Positions 7,135 to 25,058 of a stretch of DNA of 56,652 nucleotides are shown in pieces. The notes beneath the pieces were generated by a model. That model did no database searches and was not told the DNA's origin. It saw only the letters and a list, made by a program, of their open reading frames with translations. The stretch is from positions 1 to 56,652 of the forward strand of contig CAZWPI010000001.1 in NCBI GenBank assembly GCA_964636055.1, given 5' to 3'. The translations under genes and the position numbers were made by a program. Source of the stretch: an uncultured Candidatus Bathyarchaeia archaeon (GTDB taxonomy: Archaea; Thermoproteota; Bathyarchaeia; Bathyarchaeales; Bathycorpusculaceae). Every line of letters starts with the position of its first letter. The first letter of the stretch is position 1.

Positions 7135-7210
7135 TTCAAATCTCCTCTAGACTTCCACTCTTTCATCATAATTAAATCGTTCTACCCTTCCAGTTGGAAG
7201 GGATGTTATC

Positions 7211-7242
7211 AAAAGAAAAAAAGGAAATTGCGGGATATTTCC
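7211..7242 (+). repeat. oligoA / GCGGGA block, copy D
   Basis: AAAAGAAAAAAAGGAAATTGCGGGATATTTCC; related to 3493/3569/3746. Confidence 0.5.
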
Positions 7243-7285
7243 ACTTTTGTTGGGGGCTCGAATCCTTACCAGCGCCATCTTTTTG

Positions 7286-7312
7286 AAAACAGAAGAAAAA
7301 GCCTTCTGTTTT
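7286..7312. other. perfect 10-bp stem hairpin (AAAACAGAAG / CTTCTGTTTT), T/A-run flanked on both strands
   Basis: read directly; lies between divergent genes where no terminator is expected. Confidence 0.7.
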
Positions 7313-7320
7313 AGTGAGGT

Positions 7321-7342
7321 TCTGAACCCAATTGGGTTCAGA
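7321..7342. repeat. perfect 22-nt palindrome TCTGAACCCAATTGGGTTCAGA
   Basis: read directly; a diverged copy with flanks at 21483..21515 (core hairpin 21489..21506). Confidence 0.8.
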
Positions 7343-7568
7343 GACGAGCAGCCTTATCCATTGCTATTTGTTTGCATGTGAATGTGCATAGTTGAGGGCT
7401 AAGAACACGACTTATTGAAAATCGAAACTCAAAAGTCTCGTAAAAACTTATCAGATTTATGGACTTGACCCCGTTTGGGGGCTAGTCCAGCAGACCCGCG
7501 ATTTTCAACTGTAAACGAAATGTAAAAAAGGGCTTTTTTCACATTCTATAGAGAATAGAATCATTTGG

Positions 7569-8603
7569 ATGGTGGTTTTGATGAAACGGAAGGATTACCT
7601 GCAGAGTCCAGTGAAGCACATAAAAATAAACGGCACGCTGACAGTGAACCAGCTGATCCAACAGTTTCAGGGTTCAGGCTCTTTCGGGGCTGGAAGGCTC
7701 GCTCGGGCGTGCAACATTTACGAGAAAATGCTGCGAGACAAAGACTGCACCGTGTTTCTAGCTCTTTCTGGCGCCCTGGTTCCAGCGGGAATGCGCGCGC
7801 TCGTCACCGACCTCATTCGTGCAAGACTCGTCGATGTTATAGTCAGCACTGGAGCCAGCATGGTCCACGACACCATTGAAGCTTTGAATGGGCATCACTA
7901 TAAGGGAAGTTGGACCGCGGATGACCGTGAGCTTTACAGGTACCACATTTTCCGCATTTACGATGTTTTCGTTCCGGAAGAAGACTATGTGAAACTTGAT
8001 TACCAGATTTCTGAAATGTACCGGGAGATCGCGGGTGAGAGAAACGGAGAAAGCCTCTCTTCAAACGAGTTTGCGTGGGAACTGGGCAAGAGGCTCAAGG
8101 ACCCAAACTCTATTCTGCGCGCTGCGTATGAAGAAAACGTGCCCATCTTCATTCCCGCGGTCCGCGACTCGGAATTCGGCTACGTCCATCTGCTTCACGC
8201 TTCACAGGAAAACCAAAAAAACATACTAGCGGTTGACGCCTTCAAGGATGTGCCGCTTATATGCGATATCTGTGGGAAATCGCCTAAAAACGGGATGGTG
8301 GTGATTGGCGGGGGAGTGCCCAGAAACACGGTGCAATCTGCCGCCATAGCAGCCAATAAGGGCATGGACTACGCCGTGGTAATAACCATGGATCGGCCTG
8401 AAACTGGAGGCTTATCAGGTTCTACGCTTAGAGAAAGCATGAGTTGGGGAAAAGTGAGGGGAGACGCCGACAAGATCATGGTTATCGGCGATGCTTTAGT
8501 GATGTTCCCCCTGATTGTGGCTTCTGTGGTTGAGAGGCTGGGTAGCGAGTTCACGCGTACGCCGTATCTTAAACGCAGGCTTGGCACTCGGAGGAGAATG
8601 TGA
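7569..8603 (+). CDS. dys: deoxyhypusine synthase
   Basis: 344 aa; GAGRLARACNIYEKML, FLALSGALVPAGMR, VSTGASMVHD, GGGVPRN pattern of DHS. Confidence 0.92.
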   Translation: MVVLMKRKDYLQSPVKHIKINGTLTVNQLIQQFQGSGSFGAGRLARACNIYEKMLRDKDCTVFLALSGALVPAGMRALVTDLIRARLVDVIVSTGASMVHDTIEALNGHHYKGSWTADDRELYRYHIFRIYDVFVPEEDYVKLDYQISEMYREIAGERNGESLSSNEFAWELGKRLKDPNSILRAAYEENVPIFIPAVRDSEFGYVHLLHASQENQKNILAVDAFKDVPLICDICGKSPKNGMVVIGGGVPRNTVQSAAIAANKGMDYAVVITMDRPETGGLSGSTLRESMSWGKVRGDADKIMVIGDALVMFPLIVASVVERLGSEFTRTPYLKRRLGTRRRM

Positions 8604-8812
8604 TGGAAGGTGTAGAGAAAGAGAAAAGGTTCTGCGGCAACTGTGGCAGCCATAACCCGTACGAGTACCCCACGAGGATGTTCTGTTTAAAGCGCTACGC
8701 CCAAAACAAAGATCCACTAGTAGATACGCTATGGTGCTGTGGCGACTGGAATCCAGTTGTCCAAGCCTGTCACTGCGTCCGAGACGCGCTGAAGGAAAAG
8801 AACGGCGAATAA
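8603..8812 (+). CDS. small Cys-rich (zinc-ribbon-like) hypothetical protein
   Basis: CGNCGS ... WCCGDW ... CHC; start overlaps dys stop. Confidence 0.4.
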   Translation: MEGVEKEKRFCGNCGSHNPYEYPTRMFCLKRYAQNKDPLVDTLWCCGDWNPVVQACHCVRDALKEKNGE

Positions 8813-8863
8813 TGCAACGCTAAAGTTATTACGTAGAATCCGTGTTTTGATGGCATAGGCTGG

Positions 8864-8936
8864 AGCCCGGTGGTGTAGCGGTCAAGCATAGGGGCCTCTG
8901 GAGCCCTCGACGAGAGTTCGAATCTCTCCCGGGCTA
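8864..8936 (+). tRNA. tRNA-Gln (anticodon CUG)
   Basis: 73 nt folded by hand: acceptor AGCCCGG/CCGGGCT, D arm GTGT-AGCGGTCAA-GCAT, anticodon arm GGGGC-CTCTGGA-GCCCT, T arm GAGAG-TTCGAAT-CTCTC, discriminator A; no encoded CCA. Confidence 0.9.
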
Positions 8937-9724
8937 CTTTGTCCCGAGCTTGTGTTTATCATGTTTTGCTGGTTGTTTTCGCGGATTTCTTTTATCATTT
9001 GTTCCCGCAGAGCTGTTGTAAGCTGGGAGAGCTGATGGTTTTCGATTTGGCTTTGGTTGATTATGGTCATGTTTGGTCTGGTTAGGGCGTCGCGGGTTAA
9101 GATTTCTTCGGGGTTGAGTCCCCATGCGCGCATGATTTCTTTGAGGGCGTCGATTTTGGTTATTCTGGTTTTTGGTTGGATGCTTAGTCCTGATGATAGG
9201 TATATGCCTCTTAGGAATTCGGTGCCTTTCATTTTGATGTCGTGGTAGGTGCTTATGGTGTGTCCCATCATGTATTCGATGTAGTCGCGGTCTACGCCTA
9301 GTGCTGCCATTTGTGTGCGGAAGAATTTGCGTATGCTGTGGGCGCGTAGGTCGTAGCGTCTGCCTATGGGATTGGGGGTTAGGATTCCTGCTTCTATGTA
9401 GAGGTTGTGTATTATGCCGTGGAGTCGGACTGTGGTTATGGTTCTTACGTGTTTGTTGTGTCCGTCGCGGATTAGTGGGGAGTCGTCGCGGATGTTTTCT
9501 GGGGGTGTTCTGCCTCTGTAGCTGCCTTTTCTTCTGCTTTCCACGTATGCTTTGAGGTAGTCTGCGGCTTCTTGGCCTATGAATGTGTCGTAGTCGTGGT
9601 ATTTTCCTTTGGTGATTTCTGCTTCTACGTGGATGTGGATTGGGGTTATGCCTTTTTCGAGGTCGCGTTTGACGTGGCGGTATTGGAGTTTGACGAGTGT
9701 GCCTATGTGAAAGCCTCCTAGCGC
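8882..9724 (-). pseudogene. tyrosine recombinase / integrase, 5'-truncated
   Basis: LRAHSIRKFF...MGHTISTYHD (HxxR, H, Y); frame open only to 9724 with no start codon (track M at 9544 is an internal GTG); 3' end runs antisense into tRNA-Gln. Confidence 0.8.
8923..8937 (+). repeat. att core copy 1 (3' end of tRNA-Gln) TCTCTCCCGGGCTAC
   Basis: direct repeats at 21116, 21272, 22321. Confidence 0.8.
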
Positions 9725-9977
9725 TCACTGTAAGTATACCTCTTCGCGCAGGCAAAATCGCCTCACTTATGTTTTGTCAAAAAAATTACGCGAACTACTT
9801 TGAATAGATTGGGATAAAGTCTTAAAGATATATGCTGTATATGCTGTATACTGTTCTTTAAGGAACCCAAGTTGACGAATCCTATATGTACAAAGCTGAA
9901 AAACGAAATTGATGGAATAATCACCCGCAGCACAACAAAGCTTATTTCGCCACTCTTAATGCTGTTTTATCTTGAAT

Positions 9978-10997
9978 ATGTTGAAAAAAAACAAGAACCC
10001 AGTGGTTGAAAATGACTCTGTTAAGATAGGTTACGAAGCAACAATCTGCAATTTCATCAGGAACTACTTGCACCATAACTTCAACATAGGTGGAACGTTT
10101 AATGATACTTATATCAGCAGATTAAGTTCCCGACATCGTTTTTTGCGTCAAATTTCGCAAAGAAAATACGCAGTTCAAGAAGACTATTTCTCAAATGCTA
10201 AAGAATTAATTAACTATACGCAAGAGAAAATCGAAGAGCATCTGAACATGAAACTGGGCAACCTTGTCACTTTGAAAAAGCTCATCGAAAAAGACCATGA
10301 TAACAATAAAGAAATAGAAGCCCGAAGAAAATACTTGGAAAAAATACTACATGAGGACAACAGCCAGAAATTTCGAGAATTCTTGGAGGTTGGTTTCGAC
10401 AGAAAGGCTCGAGGGTTCTTAGCCATGTCATATGGCTTCGAAATATGCATGTTTTCCATATTGAAGGTTTTCTTGTTGAAGTTCGGATGTAGACTCGACC
10501 GCGACAGTAAAACATACGCTGTTGACAAAGGAGGTGACATTTCCACCAATTTCGGTGTTGTTTACCAAATTAAAAATTACTGTTTGACAAGTGAAGAGAA
10601 ATTTACGGAACTCCTGAATGAACTTTTTCTCAATTTTTCAGACGGCAGAATACAACAGGGAAACGTTTTCTTGATAGTTAAAGATGCATCCGATGGAATG
10701 ATGGCTCAACTAAAAAAGCAGAGTATTAATTGTATCACTGAAAAAAGCGTCATAGACTTGCTAGACAAACTAAATTCTGAAGAAAAACGCGAGGTCTTAA
10801 TGTCTATAGTTCGAGAATTTAACAGAGAACTACTAAGTGATGTGTGCAGAATATGCAAGAAAGCCGAAAAAGCAGAGTGCCCATACTCAGTCGGCGCTGT
10901 TTATTTTAGCCAATGCCCGTCTCCTCAGAAAAACGAGAAGCCAGCTCAAGTTTCCGACGGATTTTCTGAGAACGGAGCCATAAACAAGAAGTATTAG
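9978..10997 (+). CDS. hypothetical protein with Mrr-like PD-(D/E)xK nuclease core
   Basis: GFEICMFSILKVF...VDKGGDIS...VVYQIKNY...ELLNEL...VFLIV follows the Mrr catalytic-domain order (E, D, QxK); ATG at 9978 preferred over TTG 9972. Confidence 0.55.
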   Translation: MLKKNKNPVVENDSVKIGYEATICNFIRNYLHHNFNIGGTFNDTYISRLSSRHRFLRQISQRKYAVQEDYFSNAKELINYTQEKIEEHLNMKLGNLVTLKKLIEKDHDNNKEIEARRKYLEKILHEDNSQKFREFLEVGFDRKARGFLAMSYGFEICMFSILKVFLLKFGCRLDRDSKTYAVDKGGDISTNFGVVYQIKNYCLTSEEKFTELLNELFLNFSDGRIQQGNVFLIVKDASDGMMAQLKKQSINCITEKSVIDLLDKLNSEEKREVLMSIVREFNRELLSDVCRICKKAEKAECPYSVGAVYFSQCPSPQKNEKPAQVSDGFSENGAINKKY

Positions 10998-11026
10998 TCG
11001 TGTAGCGCTTAGAAACGACTACTATT
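10990..11026. repeat. AGAAGTAGT-family hairpin H1
   Basis: AGTATTAGTCGT-gtagcgcttagaa-ACGACTACTATT; overlaps stop of 9978..10997. Confidence 0.65.
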
Positions 11027-11181
11027 ACATTAACTCAAGTCAGCAACCAACCAAATGCACCCTGCTCAGAAAACACAACCGACAAAATTGAATTCTTATA
11101 CGCGTTGAAGCTAGCAACAATATTGATGATTCGATTTGCACGCTATTTTATAGCTCAAACGCAAAACATCTGAACTGTTTT

Positions 11182-12621
11182 TCACTTTTCTTTGTTAACA
11201 GTTGTAGTTTGAGTGTGTTTGGAGAGAATCAACGCGATTTTTTCATTATTATCCTTTAATCTACCTATTATTGATGCGACATGCTTGTGAATGTCCCTCT
11301 GTGATTTATCTATGCAATCGTTAATTTTCTTGCAATCATCTAAGCACTTCAGATTATCGTCTATGTGGCAGACTATGTCCTTGTCGTCCATTATGGCCTG
11401 CAAGTTAATTGTTTGCCTTCCAAATCGATAATTTGTCAGGTACAAATCATAAAACATCGCTAACGTGGAAGCAGCCATCTCAGGCGTTGTAATAATGACT
11501 ATGCCCAACGAATCATCAATTGTATAACCTTTAACCTTTGCTGATCTCGGCGGTTTCTTAACCGACAATATTGCCGTGGCAATCCCGTACCGGTTCATAT
11601 CCCTTTTCGTCTGCTCAAGATAATCGTTACTCCATGTATCGCTGGCTTTACTTTCAATCAATACACGGCCGATTTCTAAGTCCTGATACGAAAACTTGAC
11701 TATTATGTCCGTGGCATCTGGACCACCCAAAGGCTCAATGGCAACATTTTTGTTTGTCAAGAAAGTCTCGTTAATCAAATCGAGAAGTTCCAGCTCTGCT
11801 TTCTCACCTTTAACCGGCGCAATCTTTAGGCTCTGCAAAACAGTGTTAAGTCCGCCAGTAGCTCCTTCTATTCCACTTAAGACGTTCTTGATTTCAGCCT
11901 TAATCTCATCAATGCTCTTGCCTTGCTTAAGCAGAAGCTCGACCTTTTCCACAAGCGCCTTCATCTGCTCTTCAACAATCTCTCTCACAAACTTCTTGGT
12001 ATCTTCCTTCATTTCCGTCTGGAGCTGCTCAAGGCTCTTCTCGTGTTTCAGAAGAGTTTCAATCTTATCGACAACAATACACATTTGGCTCGATATCAGG
12101 TCCTTCACGAACTTTTCCGTATCTTCTTTTAGCGCCTTCTGAATTTCTTCAATACCTTTGCCCTGCTTGATCAAAATATCAACTTTTTCTACCAAGTAAG
12201 CCGTTTGCTCTTCAATGTTTTTCTTAACAAACTTCTCAGTTTCTTCCTTCCTCTTTTCAGTCTGCTCAACCATATCCTTCAGATAATCCTTAACAGACTT
12301 ACCCATAGATTCTTTAACGTCATCTACTGCCGAACTCATACCATCCTTGACATTCCCAAAATCACTTCGAATTTCCTTAAGCACCTGACTTACTATCTCA
12401 CGGACATCTGCACCTATCTTCATCTGTTGATCAATTGCCTTGAAAGCTTTGAGCGCAACACTCAATCGGTCATCATCTTGTAACTCAAACAACCAATCTC
12501 TGACTTCAGCGTCAATTTCAGCAAAAAAGCATGTCCGGTCAATTACTTCACAATACTTACGGCGAATTTTACGCGCCTTCCTGCTAGGAGAAACTGCAGC
12601 AGAAACCTCCAGCTTTGCCAT
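11182..12621 (-). CDS. coiled-coil protein with C-terminal PD-(D/E)xK domain (DUF2130-like)
   Basis: 479 aa; three 39-aa tandem repeats; C-terminal GGPDATDIIVKF...GRVLIESKASDTWSNDYLEQTKRDM pattern. Confidence 0.6.
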   Translation of the reverse strand: MAKLEVSAAVSPSRKARKIRRKYCEVIDRTCFFAEIDAEVRDWLFELQDDDRLSVALKAFKAIDQQMKIGADVREIVSQVLKEIRSDFGNVKDGMSSAVDDVKESMGKSVKDYLKDMVEQTEKRKEETEKFVKKNIEEQTAYLVEKVDILIKQGKGIEEIQKALKEDTEKFVKDLISSQMCIVVDKIETLLKHEKSLEQLQTEMKEDTKKFVREIVEEQMKALVEKVELLLKQGKSIDEIKAEIKNVLSGIEGATGGLNTVLQSLKIAPVKGEKAELELLDLINETFLTNKNVAIEPLGGPDATDIIVKFSYQDLEIGRVLIESKASDTWSNDYLEQTKRDMNRYGIATAILSVKKPPRSAKVKGYTIDDSLGIVIITTPEMAASTLAMFYDLYLTNYRFGRQTINLQAIMDDKDIVCHIDDNLKCLDDCKKINDCIDKSQRDIHKHVASIIGRLKDNNEKIALILSKHTQTTTVNKEK

Positions 12622-12810
12622 ACAATTTCCCTAATTAGTAAATCAAAGGTTTAAACTATAATCTTTATGAAATTATAGTATTAATAGCAAATAATGAGGC
12701 TAAATCATCAATCCTATGTTAAAAATTTGTTGAGTGTAACGCTAACAAAACCATAGAACCCCAGTTATTGCAAACATAACATGCGAAAAGCTCTCAATAA
12801 TATCCGCTTA

Positions 12811-15347
12811 TTAACTAAAACTAAGTGGCCTTGTGTAGGCAGCTATTTCTGCAAGAAACTCTGAGTTTTCGTTTTGACGAGTGTAGATAAATAGGTCTTC
12901 TTTTGCTCTGGTAACGGCAACATAGAAAAGTCTGCGTTCTTCTTCCTTTTGATCTTTTATTCCATTGTCTTCTCTTGCCACCTCAAAAATCGCTGGGTCT
13001 TCAATTTCGCTAGGAAAACCAAACTCACCTTTTACCACGTTCAAAATAAAAACAACCTTAGCCTCCAATCCTTTACATTTATGCACCGTGAGCAACCTAA
13101 CAGCGTTAGGCTCTTTGGCGTGGTCAACAGCTACTTTAAAACTGGAGGATTTCGAAGCCTCTATAAATTTTTGAACAATCTGAAAGAATCTGATTCTACC
13201 TTTAATCTTAGTTCGCATATACCGCGTAAGGATAAGAATCTCGTCTGCAGCATACCCCTTTCCTAAGTATTCGCCAATTCGCCTCAAACAATCTTGAACC
13301 GTCTCCTCAAAATACGCCTCATCCCATTTTTCCGCAGAACTGTAAACGGCGATTGGCTTAATCTCTTCAATATTTGACAGTGAGGGTTTCTGTACTTGAC
13401 TCGCGCCATTGTTTCTTATCAAATCTGCGCCAGCATCAACAATTGACTTAACGCTTCTGTAATTAGTACAGATTTTGCTTATCGCTGGATTTGCAAAGTA
13501 GTTACCAAAATTAACGAAGAAATTCAGGTTCGACCCAGAAAACCCCATTATGCTCTGCCAATCATCGCCAACGCAAAAAAGCTTGCAATCGGGATTCCGC
13601 TCAAGCAGCTTTTTAAGAAGTTTTAGCCTTTGAGCACTCATATCTTGATACTCATCTATCAGAATGTGGTCATACACATCTGCATACAAACTGCTGTCCT
13701 TCTCTAAAGCCTCAACAGCTTCGTTAATCATATCCTCAAAATCAGTCTTTTCAAATCTCTTCAACTGCATTTGATACGCCCGAAAAACCTCCAGCGCAAG
13801 CCTCCCAAACGCCAATTGCTTGCCGCTCCATCTTCCTCTCCTAAGTTTTCCTTCAATTTGCTCAGGACTTAAGCCATAAGTCTTCGCAATAGTAATAAAG
13901 TTCTGAATATCCTCGATAGGTGTCTTTTGAGAATCCCAAACCAATTCAAAATTTCTTCGTAATTCAAACGCGAAAACTCAAAACTTCGGTCTGGAAACTT
14001 TTTTTGAAGTGTCTCAAGGAGACGTTTTTTCAACAATTCATCGAACTCTTCAGGTTCTTCTGAATTATATTCGTAAGCAAAGGTTTCCATTAGAAGTCGA
14101 TTGTTTTCAGCAAACCACTTCTTTTTCTTCTCCATCGACTCGCGATATTCGTCGGTAGATTGACTGAACCATTCTGGCACTTCACCATCTTTACGAAGCC
14201 CCCAATGCTCAATGAAAACATCAAATTGAGGAAGATAAAAATCAGGTCTAAAACCACCAACGTCAGGCTCATAACCAACAAAAATCGGTTTTCCATTGAT
14301 TTTATGAGTCAGCAGGCAATCCATAATCTCTTTTTCAGCCCTGCTATTGACCTTCGTACCATTAATTGAAACGTAACTACGTTCTATTGCGTGAGCAACA
14401 ACCTCTCCCTTGTCCGCTTCAGTCGGCTCATCGTCGTTGTCATGAACAGTTTTTATGTAACGAATAAATAATCGATAAAAATCGCGATTAGTGACAATCT
14501 CTTCCTCAAAAAAACTCTTCACAAAACCAAACTTTCTGTTTTCATCAACAATGTCTGTTCTCTCTATTATCCTGCCAGAACGTTCAAGAATGTCTTTCCC
14601 AAGTTTGTGAAACGTTCTGACCCACACGTCATCGATTCCGTATCGGTCCCTTAGGCGCTGTTCGATTTGTTCCATTGCCTTTCTCTGATATGCTATTGCC
14701 AAAATCCGATTAGGCTCGACACCATCAGGTTCACGCTTAATCAAGTAGGCAATTCTAGTTATGAGCACTTCAGTTTTGCCTGAGCCTGCAGCTGCAACCA
14801 CAAGATTATGCTTGTCATCCGTAACAATCGCCGTCTGTTGCTCATCATCAAGAGAAATCAAGCCTTTCGACCATAGATGCTTATACTCATTTTTCCTCTG
14901 CTTCACAAACTCATCGTTATAGTTCATAACGGATAGTTTGCTTTTGTTGAGCGTTTTCCTAATTTCTGCAATGAATTCGGGACTAAGCACATTGTTTTCT
15001 TCGCATGCTACTATCTCCGATTCAGCTAACTCTATTCTCGAAAGACATCTTGCCTTTTTTGGATGAATTAAGTAGGTCCCACTTTCTTCTATTTCATGAG
15101 CAAACCTGCTGACTTCAGAAACATCCCCGCTTACTCTATTCCGAATTTTGTCAGTTAGTTGAGCAATTCGCCACCCATAATCTCCGCCAAACAGAAAACC
15201 AATCAGCAAAAACCTAAGAAACTTGATCCGTCTGCTTTTTTTGTAGTTTGATTTTAACTCATGTATTTCTTTCTCAAGTTCCGATAAATTCCTGGTTTCA
15301 GGTAAATTCCGCTTAGGTCCCAGTTTCTGCAAGCACATTTTCAGCAT
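12811..15347 (-). pseudogene. SF1 helicase of UvrD / helicase-IV type with embedded nuclease-like module, split by one frameshift
   Basis: AAAGSGKTEVL (Walker A), GGFRPDFYLPQFDVFIEHWG, ILIDEYQDMS, CVGDDWQSI, TNYRS, TVHKCKGLEAKVVF, FYVAVTRAKEDL; ORFs 13869..15347 and 12811..13944 overlap; frames join if the A4 run 13948..13951 were A5. Confidence 0.85.
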
Positions 15348-15573
15348 TCCAGTTTTCTATATAGTTTCACACATGGTAGAGCGATAAAGCACCCTTGGAA
15401 GTGACATAGCTTTTGCTATATCGACATAAGCATATAAAATTCGTTAAATGTAACTCATGATTGCAAATAACAGAACTAATGAAAAAGCTAATTGTCGCAA
15501 TTTGAAACGCTGTTCTCAGAGGAAATTTTTTCTTAAAACCATGCTGAAACTGGTTGAAGGAGCATTCAACTAT

Positions 15574-15609
15574 AAGTAGTAGTCGTATAGCGCTTCGCGC
15601 CGAGTACTT
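15574..15609. repeat. AGAAGTAGT-family element H2 (imperfect hairpin)
   Basis: AAGTAGTAGTCGTATAGCGCTT is 20/22 identical to H1; right arm CGAGTACTT. Confidence 0.55.
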
Positions 15610-15781
15610 CTAATTAATGCAATTTTAGAAATAGCTGACTGTAAAATATAGATCAGTATGTGCTTTCACCCAGCACCACAAACCTTGTGGATGACGAATA
15701 GAAAAACAAAGCTCTTATAGCGCGCTATAACTAACAAGCAGATCCCAGATTCTTCTAAAGCAAGCCTCCGCTGTCTTAAAC

Positions 15782-16496
15782 ATGGGGGAATTACGGTTGA
15801 AAATGAAAAAGGCGTCTAAGAAGAGGAGAAAGAAAAGTGGGAAACAGCTGACCAAAATCACTGTAAGTTCAAGATCCAAAACTTCAAAAACTTATGAAGA
15901 ATTTGCTTACATACTGGACGTTTACGACAAGAAGGATACAAGTTATGCACATGCTATCGGAGACAGATACTTCAAGCTTTTAGTTCTAAAGTTGAAGCCT
16001 TTGGATGAGAAACAATCATTGATCTTGAACCGAGTATTTATAGGCTCCTCAACGGAGCGCGACATCGTCGAAAGAGTTCAAGATAGAATAGTCTCAGCCA
16101 GAAAACTCAAAACAGGCTGGACACAATTTAAAACAGGTTGTTTATGAAATGGTTCGTGACAGATTGTTTGAGACTGAAAACAGTGGCAACGCAATTTTAC
16201 TCTTCTTTAACTTTGCCTCCCCAAGAGGTTTAAGGCAAATTGGCTTACCTAACTCAAACATTTACTCTCTAATTAAAGTTCGAGACGCGATGCTTCCAAA
16301 GAGATTCTCGAATATGCTTGAAGTAGCCCGGGCACTAAGTAAAACCGGATCAAAAGTTGACTCATATGACATAACTAAAATGATTAGGGCGAGAGTCCTC
16401 TATGAACTGGAACATGGCCAAAGTGAAGCTTTCTCTTTTCTTAGCTTTCTGGCCAATCCTGTTGACTATATTGAGAAGAATGCGGCACATATCTAA
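15782..16496 (+). pseudogene. DUF655 (COG1491)-like OB-fold / HhH protein paralog, frameshifted or split
   Basis: YEEFAYILDVYD...AIGDRYFKLLVLKLK...RVFIGS...DRI then, in the next frame, LKQVVYEMV...ILLFFNFASP follow the DUF655 order; frames join if A4 at 16109..16112 were A3. Confidence 0.5.
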
Positions 16497-16602
16497 TGCC
16501 AAACTCGGTGCGGCTTGCATCTGACGTACTTGCTTGAGATGTAAGTAATTGCGGAGAGAGGAGGTAGCTTGACGTTTTCTTTATGTTAGTAATCTTTCAA
16601 AC

Positions 16603-17262
16603 CTAAGATTCGACTTCTTTTCCTTTGTCGTGCATTTTCCACTTTCCAGTAAGTTCAGGTAAACTGCGAACTGCCTTGCGAAAAGCAGCAACAGGGCGCA
16701 TTTGACCTAGGAGAAGGTATGTATAGAAAAAGGTTGAGAACAAAGCAGCATGCTCCCAGTTTGTTGGAAGTACCGGTGCAATACAGTATCTGCACCCATT
16801 TTCTGAAACGGCTTGTATCAGATCTTTGTGACCTGCGCAACAAGCAGATAAAATGAGCAACAAAGGTCTTTCATCCTCCTTAAACTCCTTCCAAATGCCT
16901 CTTAAGTCATCAGCGTAAAGCTCTCCTCGACTCAAATCTAAATAAGTATCACCATCATCATCGACATCCCCGTGAGATGAAACATGGATTGTGTATTGAT
17001 AAGCATACTTTAAAGAGTCCACAAGGACTTTGGGACCGTATACTCTCTGCGACTGAATTTCAACTTCCTTCTTATTTTCAGCTCTTAATTGACGATTAAT
17101 AATCTCAAGATACCTCTCCAAAAAATCTATCTCAGAACACTTCTCTCTAGTTCTAACTGTGCAGTCAAGCAACAAAATAGAATTGCGAATTAATCTATAC
17201 TTTTTCTTTCGTGTTTTATGGGCTTTTTCGGCTGGACTAAGTGCTTTTCTACGTCTCCCCAA
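16603..17262 (-). CDS. minimal CHAT / caspase-fold-like peptidase
   Basis: 219 aa; His motif IHVSSHGD and Cys motif LLILSACCAGH in caspase/CHAT order; TTG start 6 nt after upstream stop. Confidence 0.55.
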   Translation of the reverse strand: MGRRRKALSPAEKAHKTRKKKYRLIRNSILLLDCTVRTREKCSEIDFLERYLEIINRQLRAENKKEVEIQSQRVYGPKVLVDSLKYAYQYTIHVSSHGDVDDDGDTYLDLSRGELYADDLRGIWKEFKEDERPLLLILSACCAGHKDLIQAVSENGCRYCIAPVLPTNWEHAALFSTFFYTYLLLGQMRPVAAFRKAVRSLPELTGKWKMHDKGKEVES

Positions 17263-17268
17263 GATTAA

Positions 17269-17748
17269 TCAACTTCCATAGGCTTTCTTAATTTTTCGAT
17301 GAATGAATTCTCGATACCAAAGTAAAGGATTTTCATTTCTCGAACTATCCATACTGAGTTTGATTAAAGGAAAAACATGTCGATATCTTGTTTCATAAAC
17401 CTTTGAGACCTCTGTGGCACGAAAGGATAGTTCAGCCAAATCGTTTTTATATTTTTCAAAAAGTTCTATTGGCGATTTTTCCTCGGTTCTAATGCGTCCG
17501 ATAAGCTCCCTACTTAGTTGTGCAAAGTCTCTCATCATTATCTGATCGCGAATATGCTCTTTGCCGAGAGAATAAGCTATTCCATAAATTATGGCTAAAT
17601 CGTTGTAACGCTGAAATCGTAGCTGACAATCACTGCAGAGGTCAAACGTCACCTTTATTGGCTTTTCAGAACTTGCGCAACGGACTATCTCGCTTCGAAG
17701 ATGTTTGCAGCAGTATTCGCACAAAACTCTTGCCTTGCTGGTGCTCAC
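17269..17748 (-). CDS. zinc-ribbon protein with helical C-terminal part
   Basis: CEYCC...CSDC at N-terminus; GTG start; co-oriented and abutting the CHAT-like gene. Confidence 0.5.
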   Translation of the reverse strand: MSTSKARVLCEYCCKHLRSEIVRCASSEKPIKVTFDLCSDCQLRFQRYNDLAIIYGIAYSLGKEHIRDQIMMRDFAQLSRELIGRIRTEEKSPIELFEKYKNDLAELSFRATEVSKVYETRYRHVFPLIKLSMDSSRNENPLLWYREFIHRKIKKAYGS

Positions 17749-17899
17749 TTTAACTCTCTTCTACAATGCTAAGTTTTTCTATAAAACGTTTAATGTATTG
17801 CCTGATCATCAGACTGAAAAGTAGGAACAAGAAATCAAGGAAATTCCGATGGTTGGGTGCTTTTAAGCATGAGCCTTAGAACGCGCCCGTAACATGCCA

Positions 17900-17942
17900 A
17901 GAAGTAGTAGTGCGCTGTGATTTTGGCTAGACTACTACTTCT
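17900..17942. repeat. AGAAGTAGT-family hairpin H3 (perfect 12-bp stem)
   Basis: AGAAGTAGTAGT-19 nt-ACTACTACTTCT between AbiEii 3' end and Zn-ribbon gene start. Confidence 0.8.
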
Positions 17943-18015
17943 AGTTTATTTTACTTAGCTTTCCTGAGAAATCACGAGAAATAAGGTATCCTTCGATCTC
18001 CAGCTTTTAAAAGCA

Positions 18016-18899
18016 TTAAACCGACTTTTTATAACTCGCCACAAATGATGCTTCTTTATGTGATTTGGAGTCTTTAATTATTCTAAGCAGGTCGCTGTCC
18101 AAGTCGCTGAGAAATGAGTATTCTGCTATAACCTTTTTAACTACTGTTGCCTCCGAGGGCAGACCTTTCCTTCTAACCAAGCGCTGAAGGTCTTCCCAGT
18201 CGTATTCGCCTCCAGAGATTTTCTCAAACAGTACATCAGGCTTGAAAGGTTCACGCACATTCCAGCACTTAAGTACTGCTAGCTTCTTCAATCTGACTTT
18301 GTCCATTGGTCTTCCTGAAAACAAATAAAGGTCGTACAAATCCCTGCTTCTAAGCCGTTGAAAGGCAGCCCTTAATTTCTCAGCCAACAGCTCTTCTTTC
18401 TGCAAACATTTTATAGAAAAACTCGGGAATTCCAGATACTTGAAATACATCTCTTCAAACTGAGGCATTTCAACAGGCGCCAATATTGGGCTCTCTCTAT
18501 AACTCACTTCCAAACTGAACTCTGAAGAATTCCATCCATGAACATAATTAATTTGAGCTAGGTAAGATTCATCATTAGCACCAAACCCACGTCTAATGTT
18601 CTCTTCCGCGATTTTGAATTTTATGCCATAATGCTGCTTATCATTCAGCAAATTAGAGAGCGCTTTCTTGAGTTCTTCCACTGAAACACCAACACTGGTA
18701 AAGTCCAAATCCATCGAAAACCGGCCACTTCCGCCGAAGAACAACTTCTTCAAGCAGGTTCCACCTTTGAAAACCAAATTTGCTAGTACATCTTAGAAAG
18801 AATTTTCAAGACGTAAGTGAGAACGACATCTCTCTCAGCCACATCTAAAGGAACGTTTGAAGATCTTGCGTAGAAATCAACAAATTTTCTCTCCAACAA
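18016..18899 (-). pseudogene. AbiEii/AbiGii-family nucleotidyltransferase toxin, one frameshift near the 5' end
   Basis: VFKGGTCLKKLFFGGSGRFSMDLDF in main ORF; upstream frame 18899..18783 encodes LLERKFVDFYARSSNVPLDVAERDVVLTYVLKILSK (typical AbiEii N-terminus); joined by adding one base at ~18793. Confidence 0.75.
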
Positions 18900-18905
18900 A
18901 CAGTC

Positions 18906-20135
18906 TCACCTTACCTCAATTTCGCTTAACAATTGCTCTTCAGAAACGTTGTTCATTACTCTCCAATCTCTAGAAAACGCCCCCCTTTTTGGTCTCCTCC
19001 TATCAAGATAAACGGTAGCATTCCCCACATAGCTTTTCAACATGATCTTCAGATGCGGAGACAATGGCTCCAGTATATCATCTTTCTCCAGAAAATCAAT
19101 AATAAAACCTAGACGCTGGACCAAAGAATGTGATTTCATTCTTAATGCGTAATCCACCAGCTTCTCTAGATTAATCTGAGGAAAACCCCTCCAAACGATT
19201 CTAGCGAGCTGCTCTATTCCCCCTGCATAATGCGGCTTGTCGAATGAGTCAATAATGGCTTTTTCAGGTTCAGCCATGCAGACCTCTGCGTCAAACACTT
19301 TTGCAGTTCGATAGCCAAAAAACTTCCTTTTTGAAAGCGTAACAAACTTGAAATTGACACTCTGCCATTCAACATCGGCCTTCTTCTTAGTCGTAGCAAT
19401 GAAATAAGTGAACGGCATCTGAGTGGTAAAGCCATAATGACTATTCGCCGTATAATAACTGAAGTAATATGGGTCAACAAAGGCAGCGCCCACAGCAAAT
19501 GCGTTTGACGGAGGAATTTTGTTTGGATAAAGACCATACGCAGATGGAACAAACTGATAAGTTCCAGTTTCGATCCTTTCAAGCCACCGTTTCTTCTCTA
19601 GACTGTGTAGGAGAACGTATGCATAGTCAAGTGTACAATTTAAAACGCTTTTAATATCGGAGGCTCGAATTATCGTCTTCTTTTCAGTTTCCCACTTAGT
19701 CACTAATCTTGCCTCGTCAGGAGACAATTTACGGATTCGCATTTGTCTCTGGCTTTCGGGAATACGTCTCAGTTTCCTTTGAGTTATTCCTAGTTCCTTA
19801 AAAGTGACAAGCCTGATAGAAAGCTGCTCTAGCTCATTCCTTATAGGCAGCGTCACACTTGAACCAACTATAACCAGTTCAAATTTCTTGAGAGTTGGAT
19901 AGATGTTGGAAATAGATGAGTATAGATTAAGAATTTTGCTTAACATAGAACGATCTATCCTATGTGAAATTACATCTACGAAAACATCCTTACCCTTGTT
20001 ATCCTTGAAATGAAAATCAATTTCGATATTCCCTGGAAGCTTTTCGTTTGTGGCAACTAGAGTGTAGTCCTTAAAGATATTCACTAACTCTCTAGAAATA
20101 TACGCTTCTAACTCATTCTTCACATCTATCACCAT
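18906..20135 (-). CDS. AbiEi-like antitoxin / transcriptional regulator with extra ~130-aa N-terminal domain
   Basis: LSPDEARLVTKWETEKKTIIRASDI...RWLERIETGTYQFVP and AIIDSFDKPHYAGGIEQLARIV match the AbiEi pattern; immediately upstream of AbiEii. Confidence 0.7.
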   Translation of the reverse strand: MVIDVKNELEAYISRELVNIFKDYTLVATNEKLPGNIEIDFHFKDNKGKDVFVDVISHRIDRSMLSKILNLYSSISNIYPTLKKFELVIVGSSVTLPIRNELEQLSIRLVTFKELGITQRKLRRIPESQRQMRIRKLSPDEARLVTKWETEKKTIIRASDIKSVLNCTLDYAYVLLHSLEKKRWLERIETGTYQFVPSAYGLYPNKIPPSNAFAVGAAFVDPYYFSYYTANSHYGFTTQMPFTYFIATTKKKADVEWQSVNFKFVTLSKRKFFGYRTAKVFDAEVCMAEPEKAIIDSFDKPHYAGGIEQLARIVWRGFPQINLEKLVDYALRMKSHSLVQRLGFIIDFLEKDDILEPLSPHLKIMLKSYVGNATVYLDRRRPKRGAFSRDWRVMNNVSEEQLLSEIEVR

Positions 20136-20472
20136 CTATCGAATAACTACTTACTAGCAACACCATTATATTTTTTTCGTATTTCCTTAGTAGATTCTAC
20201 ACATTATACTAAGATTATCAGAAATAAAAATAATAACAGACAATCCCCTTGAAACCCCTAGAAAAATAGACTCTAGTACAAATCTAATCTACGCCCCCCT
20301 TCTTTAATACCAAAGATTCTAGCATTTCAGACTACCAACAAATCAAACAACAAAAACACATAATGGAATACCAGATACGAAAATGATAAGTTATGGTGGA
20401 AAACTCACCACTCAATCGACTAGAATAGAAACTACCTCCGATTTTATGCTAGTGCTTCTGTAAACAAATGTT

Positions 20473-21015
20473 TTACTGTGTTGTTCTCCCATCACGAGTG
20501 TACTCACTGATTCGTTCAGCCAAGAAGTAAAATCTTGGCACGGTACGTTGAGGATTAGCCACAATTTTGCCTTTACGCCTCAAACGCAATATGATCCTGC
20601 GAAAAGCGTCGTGTTTTAACTCTAGAAAGTCTCGATAACTGAATTCCCGCGTTAAATCTCTCGCCTTGTTAAGAACATACGCTTCAAAAAGAGCACTATT
20701 AATTGTTTTCTGGAACTCTTTTCTTACACAACTTAAGTTGTAGGGCTCTCGGCGAGGCTTGGAAACCTGATACTGAAAAACGTTATTCTGCTGAATATTC
20801 ACAACCTGCTGCCCATTGCGAACTTGGGCTGCGCCTTCAATGCCTTTCATAAAGGAATCAGTCAAGCTAAGCGTCAGGTGGCACACGTCCATGCCGTTGT
20901 CTTTAGCCCACTGAACATAAGCCTTCCACCGCTGAAACTGCTTCAGGTTAGGAGCACGAAAATTGCAGATAAGATTCTTAGGCTGAACAACTGAAACTGC
21001 ATGGTCCCTAACCAT
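20473..21015 (-). CDS. hypothetical protein (possible wHTH at C-terminus)
   Basis: 180-aa ATG ORF at the right end of the element. Confidence 0.45.
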   Translation of the reverse strand: MVRDHAVSVVQPKNLICNFRAPNLKQFQRWKAYVQWAKDNGMDVCHLTLSLTDSFMKGIEGAAQVRNGQQVVNIQQNNVFQYQVSKPRREPYNLSCVRKEFQKTINSALFEAYVLNKARDLTREFSYRDFLELKHDAFRRIILRLRRKGKIVANPQRTVPRFYFLAERISEYTRDGRTTQ

Positions 21016-21115
21016 AAAAACTCAGCCTCACAAATTCGCAAAAAATAGAAAAAAGAGGCAGATGCTTTGTTTTCCCGAGGCTCAAATCGTATGAATTCAT
21101 GCCTAGGCGCCCGTA

Positions 21116-21130
21116 TCTCCCGGGCTACCA
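21116..21130 (+). repeat. att core copy 2 (TCTCCCGGGCTAC + CA)
   Basis: 13/13 match to the tRNA-Gln 3' end; discriminator A followed by CCA. Confidence 0.7.
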
Positions 21131-21159
21131 TTGTCTTCTGTTAGTTGGGTTTTTTGTTT

Positions 21160-21198
21160 AGAAGTAGTTGTGAGGGGTTGCTTAGCACAACATCTTCT
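21160..21198. repeat. AGAAGTAGT-family hairpin H4
   Basis: AGAAGTAGTTGTG-13 nt-CACAACATCTTCT (11 of 13 pairs) inside the 145-bp scar. Confidence 0.6.
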
Positions 21199-21271
21199 TA
21201 GGGATTGAGCTGTTTTTTGTGTTTTGGTTTTTGAATTGATTTGGGTTTGTGTTTCAGAAGTGGAAGTTGTC

Positions 21272-21286
21272 TCTCTCCCGGGCTAC
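21272..21286 (+). repeat. att core copy 3 TCTCTCCCGGGCTAC
   Basis: 15/15 identical to 8923..8937. Confidence 0.8.
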
Positions 21287-21566
21287 ATCAACCCTAGTCA
21301 GGACGACTTTCAAAAAACATTCCTGTTAGTGTTTGCGTTGAGTCGATTATATATCGAGAGGGTTCTAGTTTCCGTCAGACTACTTGGATATTAACGCATA
21401 TTAATCTAATAGGTAAATGAATTTCCAGCTTTTCTTGAGCGGCGACCGACTAAACCGCAAGCTCTAAGCGTTTGGGTTGAGTGTGTTCTGAACCCAAATT
21501 GGTTCAAGGACGGGCAAACGCGCTCCTAAAAAAATTTGCTACGTTAGTTGGCTAGATTTGAATTTT

Positions 21567-21815
21567 TTATTTTATTTGTACGATTTTCTGGTTTTCAATT
21601 ATGACTGATAGTATTTCTGATTGCTTCACGGCTTCTGTTAGTTGTGGTTCTAGGGTTTTTTCGTATTTAAAGGAGTATCGCTGTGGTTCGTCAGTAGCTG
21701 GGTCCGCTTCAAAGATGGGGAAGTCTCTTTTCCAAAAAGTTATTCTGCGGCATATCAATTGTTTCTTGTCGGTGTTTATTGCTTCTATGTTTATTGTCCA
21801 GTTGCTTAATTGCAT
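21567..21815 (-). CDS. hypothetical protein (82 aa)
   Basis: ORF only; lies in the ~1-kb scar between att copies 3 and 4. Confidence 0.3.
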   Translation of the reverse strand: MQLSNWTINIEAINTDKKQLICRRITFWKRDFPIFEADPATDEPQRYSFKYEKTLEPQLTEAVKQSEILSVIIENQKIVQIK

Positions 21816-22320
21816 TCATTCTCCCTCGGCGTATTGAATCTTACGAGATAGTTTTATTTAAACTTCTCGTTACAAATGCAGTGAAAGTTGGAGGTACAAC
21901 AATTTAACATTAGAACAATGGAACAGTAGAACAAAACAACACTTTGAGGTTTCGATGTCAAACTTGCTTACAATCTGAAGATACTTGGAGTGAGTTGAAT
22001 GTGAGACGATAAATTCTAAGCAAAAATGGAAACTTGGGCAATATTTGCTGAGAATAAAATAGCAGCTAATTTGTTTTTTTGGGGGTAATCGCGAAAAGAT
22101 TGACATTTGAGAGGGTCATGATTTTTTTACGAATCCATTTTGGTTCGGGGCCGTCATTCTTGTGCAGATTATTTAGAAATCATATCAGGAGAATAACGTG
22201 TTGGCCAAAATTCTCGAACTCTCGCCTGAATAGCGAAAATGCGAGTAAAATCTATTCGTTTCGATCGCAATCAAGCTAGTTCTTGCTCGCACATTGATAG
22301 GATGCGAAAAAGTTTGAAGC

Positions 22321-22348
22321 GAGTGTTTGAAGCTATCCCGGGCTACCA
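22321..22348 (+). repeat. att copy 4: diverged T-arm + acceptor 3' strand of tRNA-Gln plus CCA
   Basis: GAGTGTTTGAAGCTATCCCGGGCTA matches tRNA 8912..8936 at 21 of 25 positions; followed by CCA and a T-rich tract. Confidence 0.7.
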
Positions 22349-22573
22349 ACAATACGCTTTTGTTTAGATACCGCGTGCAACTTAAACCGCTTCAGTTTCG
22401 GCGTGAAAAGAGTGTGATTATAGTGAAGCATAGTAGTCTTGAGCGTAATGCTTTTGAATCGAATTCTGAATATGCATGATTAGCTCTAATTACTCCGTCT
22501 TCACAGGAGTTAAATATGATAATCACAGAACCGTTTTTCAGCGCAAATACGATACAGAAATGGCTGAATAAAC

Positions 22574-22903
22574 ATGTTGCTGGAGTTGCTGATAGGGGGT
22601 TTTTGGGTTGCTTTAGCAGTTTATTGCTTTTGGTACTTCTTCTTAGCGAAAACGTTTCAGCCGTTAACCTTGGAGGACCTAGCCTTGATGTGGCGGCTGC
22701 ATAAACTGCATTCAGGATGTACCGCGTCACGCATTCACAGCTTAATTGAAAGGAACAGCGAGGTTGTAGGGTTCAGATGCGAATGCGGTTTCGAGTTCCA
22801 GCAAAAACGTTTGATAACGCAAAGGGTTCGCAAAGCGCGTATTTCTCGCGAGGTCGCGCGTTCTTCAAAAAGCTCCGCGGGGAAGGTGGAGGAAAAACTG
22901 TGA
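22574..22903 (+). CDS. hypothetical protein, N-terminal TM helix and CxC motif
   Basis: 109-aa ORF; stop overlaps GTG start of the next gene (GTGA). Confidence 0.4.
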   Translation: MLLELLIGGFWVALAVYCFWYFFLAKTFQPLTLEDLALMWRLHKLHSGCTASRIHSLIERNSEVVGFRCECGFEFQQKRLITQRVRKARISREVARSSKSSAGKVEEKL

Positions 22904-23745
22904 TCATTGCCTTGCACTCCTATAAGGGTGGAACAGGAAAGACGTTGCTCTCGGTGAATCTGGCAACCCTGTTTGCCAAAATGGGTAAAAAAGTCTGTCT
23001 ACTAGATTTGGATCTTCGTGCGCCGAGTATTCACTCGATTTTTAAGAACACAGCGGAGTATTGGGTGAACGATTATCTAAGCAAAGCGTGCAAAATAGAA
23101 AAAGTTCTATCAGACTGCACCAGCGAGGACATGGCGAAGGGAAAACTGCTTGTTGGGTTAGCCAACCCGTCAACCGAAGCCATTCGTGAGATGGAATCCA
23201 AAGATAGAAAATGGGAAATGGAGGCGTTGGGTCGGCTTTTTTCGCTTAAGACGTCTCTTCTTAACGATATGCATTTCGATTACGTGTTCTTTGACACCAG
23301 TCCAGGTCTTCAATATTCCGCCATAAACGCCATCGTTAGCGCCGACATCGTGTTGGTGGTGATGTCACCCGACAAATCTGACGTTGAAGGCACTCAGCGG
23401 ATGGTGCGTGACCTCTATGAACTTTTTGAGAAGAAAACAGGTATCATAATCAACAAAATACCCTTTGAACATTTTTCTGCAGAAACCCACAAAAATAATT
23501 TAATACAGCTTGCAACTCACCAGCTTCCTATAGTCGGAGCCGTACCTTGTTCTTGCGACATACTTGCCGCCAGAGGAAAATGTCTATTTGCCTCCGAAAA
23601 ACCAAACCATCCGTTCACAAAAACTCTGCGGGAAATAGCTGCAAACTTGGCGGTTATGACGGGCTGCTCTGCGCGCGCTACGCCAAAGCCTTTGAAGCTT
23701 GAGAGATGCCCCAGTGACTATGTTTCCCAGCTTTTCTGTGATTGA
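22900..23745 (+). CDS. MinD/ParA/Mrp-family P-loop ATPase
   Basis: SYKGGTGKTLLSVNLA deviant Walker A, FDYVFFDTSPG Walker B; GTG 22900 preferred to the track start 22777. Confidence 0.85.
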   Translation: MIIALHSYKGGTGKTLLSVNLATLFAKMGKKVCLLDLDLRAPSIHSIFKNTAEYWVNDYLSKACKIEKVLSDCTSEDMAKGKLLVGLANPSTEAIREMESKDRKWEMEALGRLFSLKTSLLNDMHFDYVFFDTSPGLQYSAINAIVSADIVLVVMSPDKSDVEGTQRMVRDLYELFEKKTGIIINKIPFEHFSAETHKNNLIQLATHQLPIVGAVPCSCDILAARGKCLFASEKPNHPFTKTLREIAANLAVMTGCSARATPKPLKLERCPSDYVSQLFCD

Positions 23746-23816
23746 TGTGGAAAATGCGGTGGTTTCAGCCTGAAAATGCGCCGTTCCTTGTTTGTAAGCC
23801 TATAACAGCTGCGAGA

Positions 23817-24044
23817 TTATGCTTCAGGTAACGTTTCTGTGCTTCTTATTCCTTCGATACCGTTTATTTTGGTCGTGACCGCTCTTAACTCCCTGTAGTC
23901 CGCTACTTCAACGAAAACTGCTATGTCAAATCTTCCGTACGTGAAGTATGCTTTTCTTACGCCGCCAATCGCCTTGACCGCGGATAGAATAGCCTGAGCC
24001 TTGGTGGGCACGACTTTCAGCAGTATGCAAGCGTTCAACATCAT
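23817..24044 (-). CDS. stand-alone Lrp/AsnC-type RAM domain protein
   Basis: 75 aa; ACILLKV...IGGVRKAYFTYGRFDIAVFVE. Confidence 0.8.
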   Translation of the reverse strand: MMLNACILLKVVPTKAQAILSAVKAIGGVRKAYFTYGRFDIAVFVEVADYRELRAVTTKINGIEGIRSTETLPEA

Positions 24045-24283: not shown

Positions 24284-24367
24284 AGAATCAACCTCAAATA
24301 TAGAAGGCAGTATTGAGATATTAAATTATTTGTGAGTGTTATGTAGGGTCTGCAATGTCCCAGATGT

Positions 24368-25024: not shown

Positions 25025-25058
25025 TTACTTTAAGGCACTGTATGAGGTTCTAACTGTT

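Follow-up and report, generated by a model that had tools for sequence, protein, structure and literature searches.

In an uncultured Candidatus Bathyarchaeia archaeon the 3' end of a tRNA-Gln(CUG) gene is in all probability a landing site that has been used repeatedly, with three units stacked behind it by tyrosine-recombinase site-specific integration. The gene lies in a stretch of 56,652 nucleotides, referred to here as the window, which makes up all of contig C1 in a metagenome-assembled genome (MAG; G000, 2.03 Mb in 278 contigs, 87.7% complete). From the tRNA gene outwards the units are called E3, E2 and E1, and they are bounded by four copies of the tRNA end, the attachment (att) copies. 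What was directly observed is the significance of these repeats, the homology of the arm at the right-hand attachment site (attR) of E3, the decay of the integrase, the presence or absence of E3 among strains, and the recurrence of both E2 and the arms of E1. Serial integration at this gene had been put forward in the original prediction, made from the window alone; the polymorphism of E3, the other DNA found at the site in a relative (G009) and the attR arm homology uphold it, with four corrections.

Bathyarchaeia are among the most abundant archaea of sediments and are uncultured, and their mobile DNA has barely been described. The locus is a worked example of the gain and loss of defence genes at a tRNA hotspot that is visible among co-existing strains, and it brings with it an integrase family, numbering over 1,400 protein clusters, in which the att site overlaps the end of the integrase's own gene. 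The DNA of the window was detected in sediment metagenomes. Few homologues of the island proteins carry a source name, and all of these are annotated as Bathyarchaeota, Bathyarchaeia or Crenarchaeota archaea.

The tRNA gene and the four att copies

The deoxyhypusine synthase gene is the left neighbour of tRNA-Gln(CUG). The last 15 nt of the tRNA gene (TCTCTCCCGGGCTAC) have, at no more than two mismatches, four plus-strand matches in the window against a chance expectation of 0.10, and none of 100 shuffles gave four, which bears out the predicted three further copies on the same strand. The tRNA gene and the copies are as follows.

8864..8937, + strand: tRNA-Gln(CUG), intact; ARAGORN (CTG anticodon), Rfam tRNA 59.6 bits; the sole tRNA called there
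8923-8937, + strand: att copy 1, the last 15 nt of the tRNA and the left-hand site (attL) of E3; repeat search, 0 mismatches
21114-21128, + strand: att copy 2, part of the attR of E3; 1 mismatch, 13/13 exact from 21116
21272..21286, + strand: att copy 3; 15/15 identical to the tRNA end
22332..22346, + strand: att copy 4, the outermost attR; 2 mismatches, host flank from 22347

Two finer predictions were likewise confirmed by alignment, namely the diverged match of window 22321-22345 to tRNA positions 8912-8936 (21 of 25 identical) and the CCA directly after copies 2 and 4. A check of the rest of the 2.03-Mb assembly found no similar frequency of the 15-mer, which at the same threshold occurs at two other places only, the tRNA-Gln(TTG) gene on contig C51 and one pseudo-copy on C256. 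The last 29 nt are identical between the two tRNA-Gln genes of the genome. An exact inverted 10-mer (CCCGGGCTAC, 16323-16332) is taken as chance, because it has no extended tRNA similarity and lies inside an open reading frame (ORF). No extra att copy was seen near 23,750-23,820, where homology to several relatives starts.

The predicted AT-richness of the DNA between copies 1 and 2 also stands: its GC content is 40.1%, compared with 46.0 +/- 2.2% for the genome (168 windows of 12 kb; z = -2.7), and its tetranucleotide distance is within the top 1.2% of the genome. The marks of a tRNA island are therefore found together here, as the tRNA is intact and has direct repeats, an integrase (a pseudogene) stands beside it, the DNA is absent from or rare in close strains and is not in G009, and the composition is atypical. 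The other lowest-GC stretch of the genome (39-40%, C11:1-15000) carries paralogues of the AbiE genes of E3 described below, and is possibly a second island.

Unit E3 and its presence among strains

E3 occupies 8938-21128 (12.2 kb). Three features at its two ends relate it to elements elsewhere.

8882..9751, - strand: tyrosine integrase pseudogene of E3, running antisense through att into the tRNA gene; tblastn, ORF and alignment
20473..21015, - strand: P0003, a conserved 180-aa backbone gene adjoining the attR arm of E3; C-terminal winged helix
21085..21128, + strand: P arm of E3 (CGTATGAATTCATGCCTAGGCGCCC) with att copy 2, together the attR of E3; arm comparison with G156

The predicted tyrosine recombinase is present beside the tRNA as a homologue, and it is broken. 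It is called a pseudogene because it retains only residues 187-483, has no start before 9544 and has a histidine in place of a catalytic arginine. By tblastn the remnant aligns to those residues of the 485-aa homologue P0007 at 79% identity, so that approximately 186 N-terminal residues are missing (full-length relatives have about 476 aa, range 476-485). The open frame, 8882..9724, contains no start codon ahead of a GTG at 9544. The first catalytic arginine is altered in the sequence GGFHIGT, which replaces the GGFRIGT that is invariant in seven aligned full-length homologues; the HSIR motif and the tyrosine region (GHTISTY) are retained. Both a complete R...HxxR...Y set and a full protein with a start codon, as expected of an active tyrosine recombinase, are thus lacking, and the matches to Pfam PF00589 and PF16795 are both below cut-off. 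An independent Logan assembly has an identical remnant sequence. Without the N-terminal 186 residues and the first catalytic arginine of its integrase, E3 is therefore now an immobile cargo island. The sense (minus) strand of the remnant is strongly A+C-rich over 8938-9760 (plus-strand AT skew -0.30, GC skew +0.22), which explains the reading PRRPNQTKH... of an out-of-frame ORF; E2 shares this strand bias.

A search for the integrase family gave 1,447 matches (protein clusters), typically of 476 aa, with a C-terminal tail (SPGEIRTLV..) that is the antisense reading of the tRNA-Gln T-arm. The family is patchy, being found in 41 of 200 genomes of the order, and many members are 5'-truncated remnants. 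The core of the att site overlaps the codons for SPGE, 13 codons ahead of the stop in the window copy, and the catalytic domain lies entirely on one side of it. As att overlaps the last integrase codons only, the gene exchanges a short tail on integration and stays unsplit. Homologues of 476-485 aa stand beside tRNA-Gln genes, and the tRNA-joined and arm-joined forms differ only after SPG(E/D). One homologue, P0049, ends in GSPGDTNA, which reads into an arm of the copy-2 type; this is the tail predicted for the site of the circular form (attP) or for a tandem configuration.

An intact relative of E3 in genome G156 lies at tRNA-Gln(UUG), with a full-length integrase reading into the tRNA and an attR 21 kb apart. 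The 25 nt left of copy 2 are identical at 20 of 25 positions to those left of the G156 attR, and copy 2 is the true attR of E3 because its left arm matches the attR arm of this intact element. The arm motif TCGTATAAAT is also found upstream of a P0003 homologue in G215. In many homologues the codons MNSCLG precede the core, and the arm sequence ATGAATTCATGCCTAGGC is their inverted repeat; inverted sites thus seem to lie on either side of the core. G032 also has a tandem array at its tRNA-Gln(CUG) gene (locus L037, C21:3046-12952). It has two downstream cores, at 6497 and 12944, each followed by CCA, and a full-length integrase (61% identical to P0007) beside the last core on the same strand as the tRNA, the opposite of the orientation in the window family.

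Relatives of P0003 form 312 protein clusters (69-94% identity), none with a Pfam match; the few named ones are from Bathyarchaeia or Crenarchaeota. The gene is patchily distributed, with only 8 carriers among 200 genomes of the order. In its predicted model residues ~96-173 match winged-helix domains (Z 9.2, root mean square deviation 1.3, 59 residues aligned). A ribbon-helix-helix fold for the N-terminus, where the predicted confidence (pLDDT) is below 50, was unsupported by the model. In a circular form P0003 would come after the integrase across attP, in the same direction. A further P0003 homologue begins 36 nt past an intact tRNA-Pro(GGG) (locus L085, G162:C18, ~1997-2609), and relatives of the E3 family therefore use other tRNAs too.

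The distribution of the units among strains was compared over window 7000-24500 in Logan contigs from four runs (X1 to X4) of one sediment study. The depths sum all organisms of a sample and are rough only.

Run X1: flank ~50, E3 33, E1 33-46
Run X2: flank ~28, E3 4-6, E1 16
Run X3: flank 26-31, E3 0-3, E1 21-29

Identity of the X2 and X3 flank contigs to the window is ~99.3-99.6%. One X3 contig (depth 27.6) extends over 21116-21314, from the core across E2 and copy 3 into the beginning of E1, and is preceded by 15 other letters. Since the depth of E3 is low while those of E2 and E1 are near that of the flank, close strains have E2 and E1 without E3, as is expected if E3 was the latest arrival beside the tRNA.

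Synteny of the deoxyhypusine synthase gene with tRNA-Gln(CUG) is kept in many relatives. In G009, of the same genus (88% nucleotide identity), E3 is not there and the tRNA is followed by 2.3 kb with a Pit phosphate transporter and a DUF47 protein; after this insert come a degenerate core, TCTCGGGCTACCAACAAAAC, and the right flank (CCAACAATACGC...) as in window 22336-25845. The same Pit-DUF47 pair stands at the tRNA in G001, and G000 is without these genes. The other DNA found in relatives shows that the site varies, and the right flank that they have in common with the window, to the right of copy 4, is ancestral. The prediction that the ancestral 3' flank had been shifted rightwards accordingly holds for the DNA right of copy 4 (CCAACAAT...); it does not hold for the T-arm part of copy 4, which is element-borne (see below). 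To the right of the array, a gene for a ParA/MinD-like ATPase (22347-23816) is present and syntenic in G009 and missing here in G007, G008 and G001, whose homology to the window begins at ~23,743-23,817.

Units E1 and E2

The two small units had been regarded as mere scars, a view that has to be given up, as each is a member of a recurrent family.

21287..22331, + strand: E1, a 1,045-bp integrase-less cassette; its arms recur with different cargo between
21287-21314, + strand: conserved P' arm of E1; recurrence in other genomes
~22205-22331, + strand: conserved P arm of E1; recurrence in other genomes
21129..21271, + strand: E2, a module of 143 bp, rich in G and T and without genes; contains a hairpin (AGAAGTAGTTGTG ... 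CACAAC..CTTCT)

Both units are bounded by att copies. Neither recombinase nor transfer genes were found in them: the ORFs of E1 have no Pfam match, and tblastn with the E3-type integrase gave nothing in 21129-22346, which covers E2 and E1. The core is common to E1 and the E3-type elements, and the arms differ. The 28-50 nt right of copy 3 are found also behind the tRNA-Gln(UUG) gene on C51 and in G007. In G007 the P' arm and a copy of window 22267-22346 enclose a 1.97-kb AbiEi/AbiEii pair, and only the arms are common to E1. Cassettes of 1-4 kb were observed at tRNA-Gln(CUG) in G051 and at tRNA-Gln(UUG) in G011. In G008 and seven metagenome contigs the arms are contiguous around the core, an arrangement that would be the look of a circular form or of the joint between two tandem cassettes. 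Logan contigs of one run contain the same joint, from 22346 back to 21290, and other inserts between the same arms were also seen.

With a 181-nt junction probe, 32 of the 81 family genomes, from 30 of 70 genera, gave arm matches, up to seven each. These fall into three classes: P arm with core, tRNA-Gln end with P' arm, and the contiguous junction. Eighteen P arms align over ~135 nt with a mean column identity of 74%, and all end in CGAG(A/T)GTTTGAAGCTATCCCGGGCTAC. In another genome the T-arm-like stretch of copy 4 is 25/25 identical; because the P arm is conserved across genera, this part of copy 4 is element-borne and not a decayed host tRNA. The P arm was rejected as a structured RNA, as RNAalifold on the 18 arms gives a weak consensus fold (-3.8 kcal/mol, 12 pairs, one covarying) and Rfam has no match in 8700-23000. 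The weakness of the fold suggests that protein binding sites are the likelier reason for the conservation of the arms.

No recombinase was found to accompany the arms. PF00589 matches are missing adjacent to the arrays in G051, G059, G256 and G249, as well as from the seven metagenome contigs, which look chromosomal and contain neither an E3-family integrase nor a called tRNA. The arms show no association with E3-type integrases, which are missing from three arm-bearing genomes at 100% completeness. Among the viral contigs of IMG/VR the E1 junction has no match. Two further sequences carry E1-type P' arms. The pseudo-copy of the tRNA-Gln end on C256 (299-379, ACTCTTCCGGGCTAC) has one and lies ~230 nt downstream of tRNA-Leu(GAG). 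In a related organism, seen in the end of G007 contig C72 and in an X4 contig that aligns to window 7571-8937, most of the deoxyhypusine synthase gene is missing (7708 is joined to 8812) and tRNA-Gln(CUG) is directly followed by such an arm.

Two more copies of E2 were found in G000, one on C3 immediately after tRNA-Arg(CCT) and one on C14 immediately after tRNA-Cys (z = 11-13 relative to shuffled sequence). These modules, of ~110-130 nt, lie at C3:22721-23050 and C14:17880-18268, and each is followed by a displaced copy of the 3' part of its own tRNA, 190 nt past the tRNA on C3 (28/28 exact) and 307 nt past it on C14 (20/20 exact). At E below 1e-6 only two of the 81 family genomes have an E2-like module, G000 and G068, and none was found behind tRNA-Cys in G009. 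E2 was considered as the decayed 3' end of an integrase and this was rejected, since its DNA similarity to the integrase 3' ends of the window and G156 gives z of ~0, compared with the 11-13 for C3 and C14; the codons shared by E2 and the integrase (DNGSPGD) are few and at the core only. The hairpin motif (AGAAGTAGTTGTG) has five matches across the window against 1.7 expected, a count reached by 3 of 100 shuffles and non-significant alone. E2 is read here as a small module, mobile or mobilised, that would ride tRNA att sites.

A tentative reading, which falls somewhat short of an even chance, is that the E1 arms mark an undescribed gene-cassette system of Bathyarchaeia that extends across the family. 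Its site would consist of a ~135-nt P arm with a pseudo T-arm end, the core and a P' arm of ~30-40 nt, and its recombinase-less cassettes of 1-5 genes would be moved in trans and stacked after one or other tRNA-Gln gene or after a detached copy of its 3' end. E2 would be a second, gene-less rider at several tRNAs.

Alternatively E2, and perhaps the E1 arms, could be functional host sequence (a trailer or terminator, a promoter or leader, a small RNA or a tRNA-Gln pseudogene), with the att copies stemming from other events. The oligo-T runs and hairpin at the start of E2 could suit a trailer or promoter function, and the G068 repeats are found away from tRNAs, at 90-400 nt upstream of genes on their A/C-rich strand. 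Contiguous E1 junctions occur among housekeeping genes without a tRNA, and the P arm keeps an 'ATAG' at the offset that the tRNA D-arm has from the 3' end. Nevertheless a host function is improbable. It would not be expected of a module so rare in the family and missing behind the G009 tRNA-Cys, nor does it account for the position of all three G000 copies of E2 between a tRNA end and the displaced 3' part of the same tRNA. The E1 arms are split around different cargo in several genomes. Rfam has no match at the G068 repeat loci either, and the consensus fold is as weak as described above.

Probable accretion, cargo and comparison with known systems

In the favoured mechanism of serial integration, an incoming circle would match the tRNA end through the core of its attP (at least TCCCGGGCTAC). 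Its integration would rebuild the tRNA from element DNA and shift the previous end rightwards, and since each integration does so the newest unit adjoins the tRNA. E3, lying beside the tRNA, would then be the latest insertion. It belongs to the large bathyarchaeal family in which the integrase gene ends inside att, antisense into the tRNA, and is now a decayed cargo island with AbiE, a split helicase, a gene resembling those of restriction nucleases, a CHAT protease and, at its attR end, the winged-helix backbone gene. E1 and E2 would have been moved by a recombinase acting in trans.

Several points weigh against this mechanism. An empty site, with the tRNA joined directly to the ancestral flank (22347 onward), was looked for in 41 relatives and not found. 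The differing strains fit either gain or loss of E3, the integrase is dead though the flanks are ~99.5% identical, and the strain depths are rough sums over all organisms. It is the MAG contig that places E3 at the CUG and not at the UUG gene, as the two genes share 29-nt ends and the Logan contigs break there. No recombinase was tied to E1 or E2 in the genomes and contigs searched, and the E2-like repeats of G068, which belongs to another genus, number ten copies with none next to a tRNA.

A single arrival of the 13.4 kb as one composite element, accreted in a previous host, is very unlikely. Tandem arrays can excise and transfer as a unit through their outermost att sites, as known for accretions of cis-mobilizable elements (CIMEs) with integrative and conjugative elements (ICEs; PMC5704250), but the X2 and X3 strains keep E2 and E1 near flank depth with E3 rare or missing, and E1-type cassettes stand alone at tRNA-Gln genes in other genera. 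Least probable of all is an assembly chimera, present in no single cell and joined through the identical 29-nt tRNA-Gln ends and repeated arms, since, for all that Logan contigs break at each att copy, segment depths are unequal and the G007 and G008 contigs end at these repeats, a 12,757-nt Logan contig (X1) that starts inside E3 at 9590, ends at copy 4 and includes copy 2, E2, copy 3 and E1 shows no difference, the ambiguity is confined to a 22-nt overlap at the tRNA, and integrase homologues with the same CUG-type tail (..EGSRGPYA) exist.

The cargo that serial integration would have brought in with E3 contains the following genes.

9972..10997, + strand: weak match to HaeII / type II restriction endonuclease; Pfam PF09554 E = 0.002 (below cut-off), PADLOC REase_II E = 4e-4
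11182..12621, - strand: protein of 479 aa, function unknown and probably coiled-coil; helical families matched, but only below threshold
12811..15347, - strand: superfamily-1 helicase, UvrD/GajB-like, that has an additional region at its N-terminus; split between the overlapping ORFs 13869..15347 and 12811..13944
16603..17262, - strand: small CHAT-domain protease; Pfam CHAT 7e-6, above cut-off
17269..17748, - strand: Cys-rich 159-aa protein upstream of the CHAT protease; faint zinc-finger matches only
18016..18777, - strand: AbiEii; PADLOC 2e-52, Pfam AbiEii 9e-29
18906..20135, - strand: AbiEi, adjacent to and co-directional with AbiEii; PADLOC 7e-63

AbiEi and AbiEii form an AbiE abortive-infection / type IV toxin-antitoxin pair (module 18016..20135), and the paralogous pair on C11 is 55-57% identical to it in amino acids. 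The helicase matches Pfam UvrD-helicase (6e-24 and 9e-24) and UvrD_C (1e-22) and the PADLOC models GajB and RTasHel (up to 1e-38). No GajA partner, as Gabija would need, is present among the 10 island proteins scanned with PADLOC. The split helicase region is identical in an independent Logan contig. Apart from the C11 AbiE pair, no cargo of E3 is shared with the G156 element, the loci of relatives or the seven metagenome contigs. From its sequence matches the cargo is inferred to act in defence. Between the CHAT and AbiE modules (17880-17950) lies GCGCCCGTA, a 9-mer found also just before the copy 2 core, and 8 nt past it is a perfect-stem hairpin, AGAAGTAGTAGTG...CTACTACTTCT, that resembles the hairpin of E2. 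This may be a relic junction within E3; the matches are individually non-significant.

The architecture of the island is of a known kind, because the re-use of att sites, tandem arrays and integrase loss are known in bacteria, as in CIME accretion (PMC5704250) and the ssrA islands of Dehalococcoides (PMC3146451), and tandem integration at one site with integrase loss after integration is documented in archaea (PMC8371274, PMC6563490). A literature search found no paper on an att site overlapping the integrase gene end in this bathyarchaeal family, nor a description of widespread recombinase-less cassettes with long conserved arms or of a gene-less tRNA-tailing module. The E1 and E2 families are apparently undescribed.

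As in the ICESt1/ICESt3-CIME system of Streptococcus (PMC5704250), att is re-used, the array is bounded by att copies, some units are recombinase-less and the newest is beside the target gene. The bathyarchaeal array differs in its archaeal host, in having no conjugation genes and in that the arms of its small units differ from those of the integrase-bearing neighbour. The Dehalococcoides islands are similarly stacked at one small-RNA gene with direct 3'-end repeats between them and with strain variation, but these are bacterial, target tmRNA and use serine recombinases. Defence-type cargo dominates here (AbiE, helicase, restriction-endonuclease-like gene, CHAT) as it does in defence islands on integrated mobile elements (PMC10201445). 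In contrast to those, AbiE is the only complete known system recognised, the helicase is split and function is read from sequence.

The tyrosine integrase, the tRNA 3' target, tandem integrations, integrase loss, and toxin-antitoxin and nuclease cargo are shared with the archaeal tRNA elements, namely SSV (type I) and pNOB8 (type II; PMC8371274) and the cryptic elements of thaumarchaea (PMC6563490). In types I and II the integrase gene is split or untouched, respectively, whereas in the window family the att core overlaps the last integrase codons and a tail is swapped. The split into Int(N) and Int(C) that defines the SSV type is not found, as full-length ORFs exist in the integrated state, for example in G156. 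In keeping the gene intact after integration the family is like pNOB8, a likeness in this feature and not one drawn from sequence comparison with the pNOB8 integrase.

Finally, the E1-type units resemble the cassettes of integrons, including archaeal ones (PMC9668308), in having few genes and a conserved site, in forming arrays and in being recombinase-less. They differ from these in that no IntI adjoins the array, the anchor is a tRNA gene and not attI, and the genes are in either orientation; the weak RNAalifold consensus of 18 arms shows no attC-like conserved hairpin for the ~180-nt E1 site. The conserved arms can be used as probes for cassette arrays in metagenomes. If it is true that recombinase-less cassettes move in trans, this would be a possible archaeal route of gene capture other than integrons, and the E1 cassette system would be a tRNA-anchored functional analogue, in archaea, of integrons or CIMEs.

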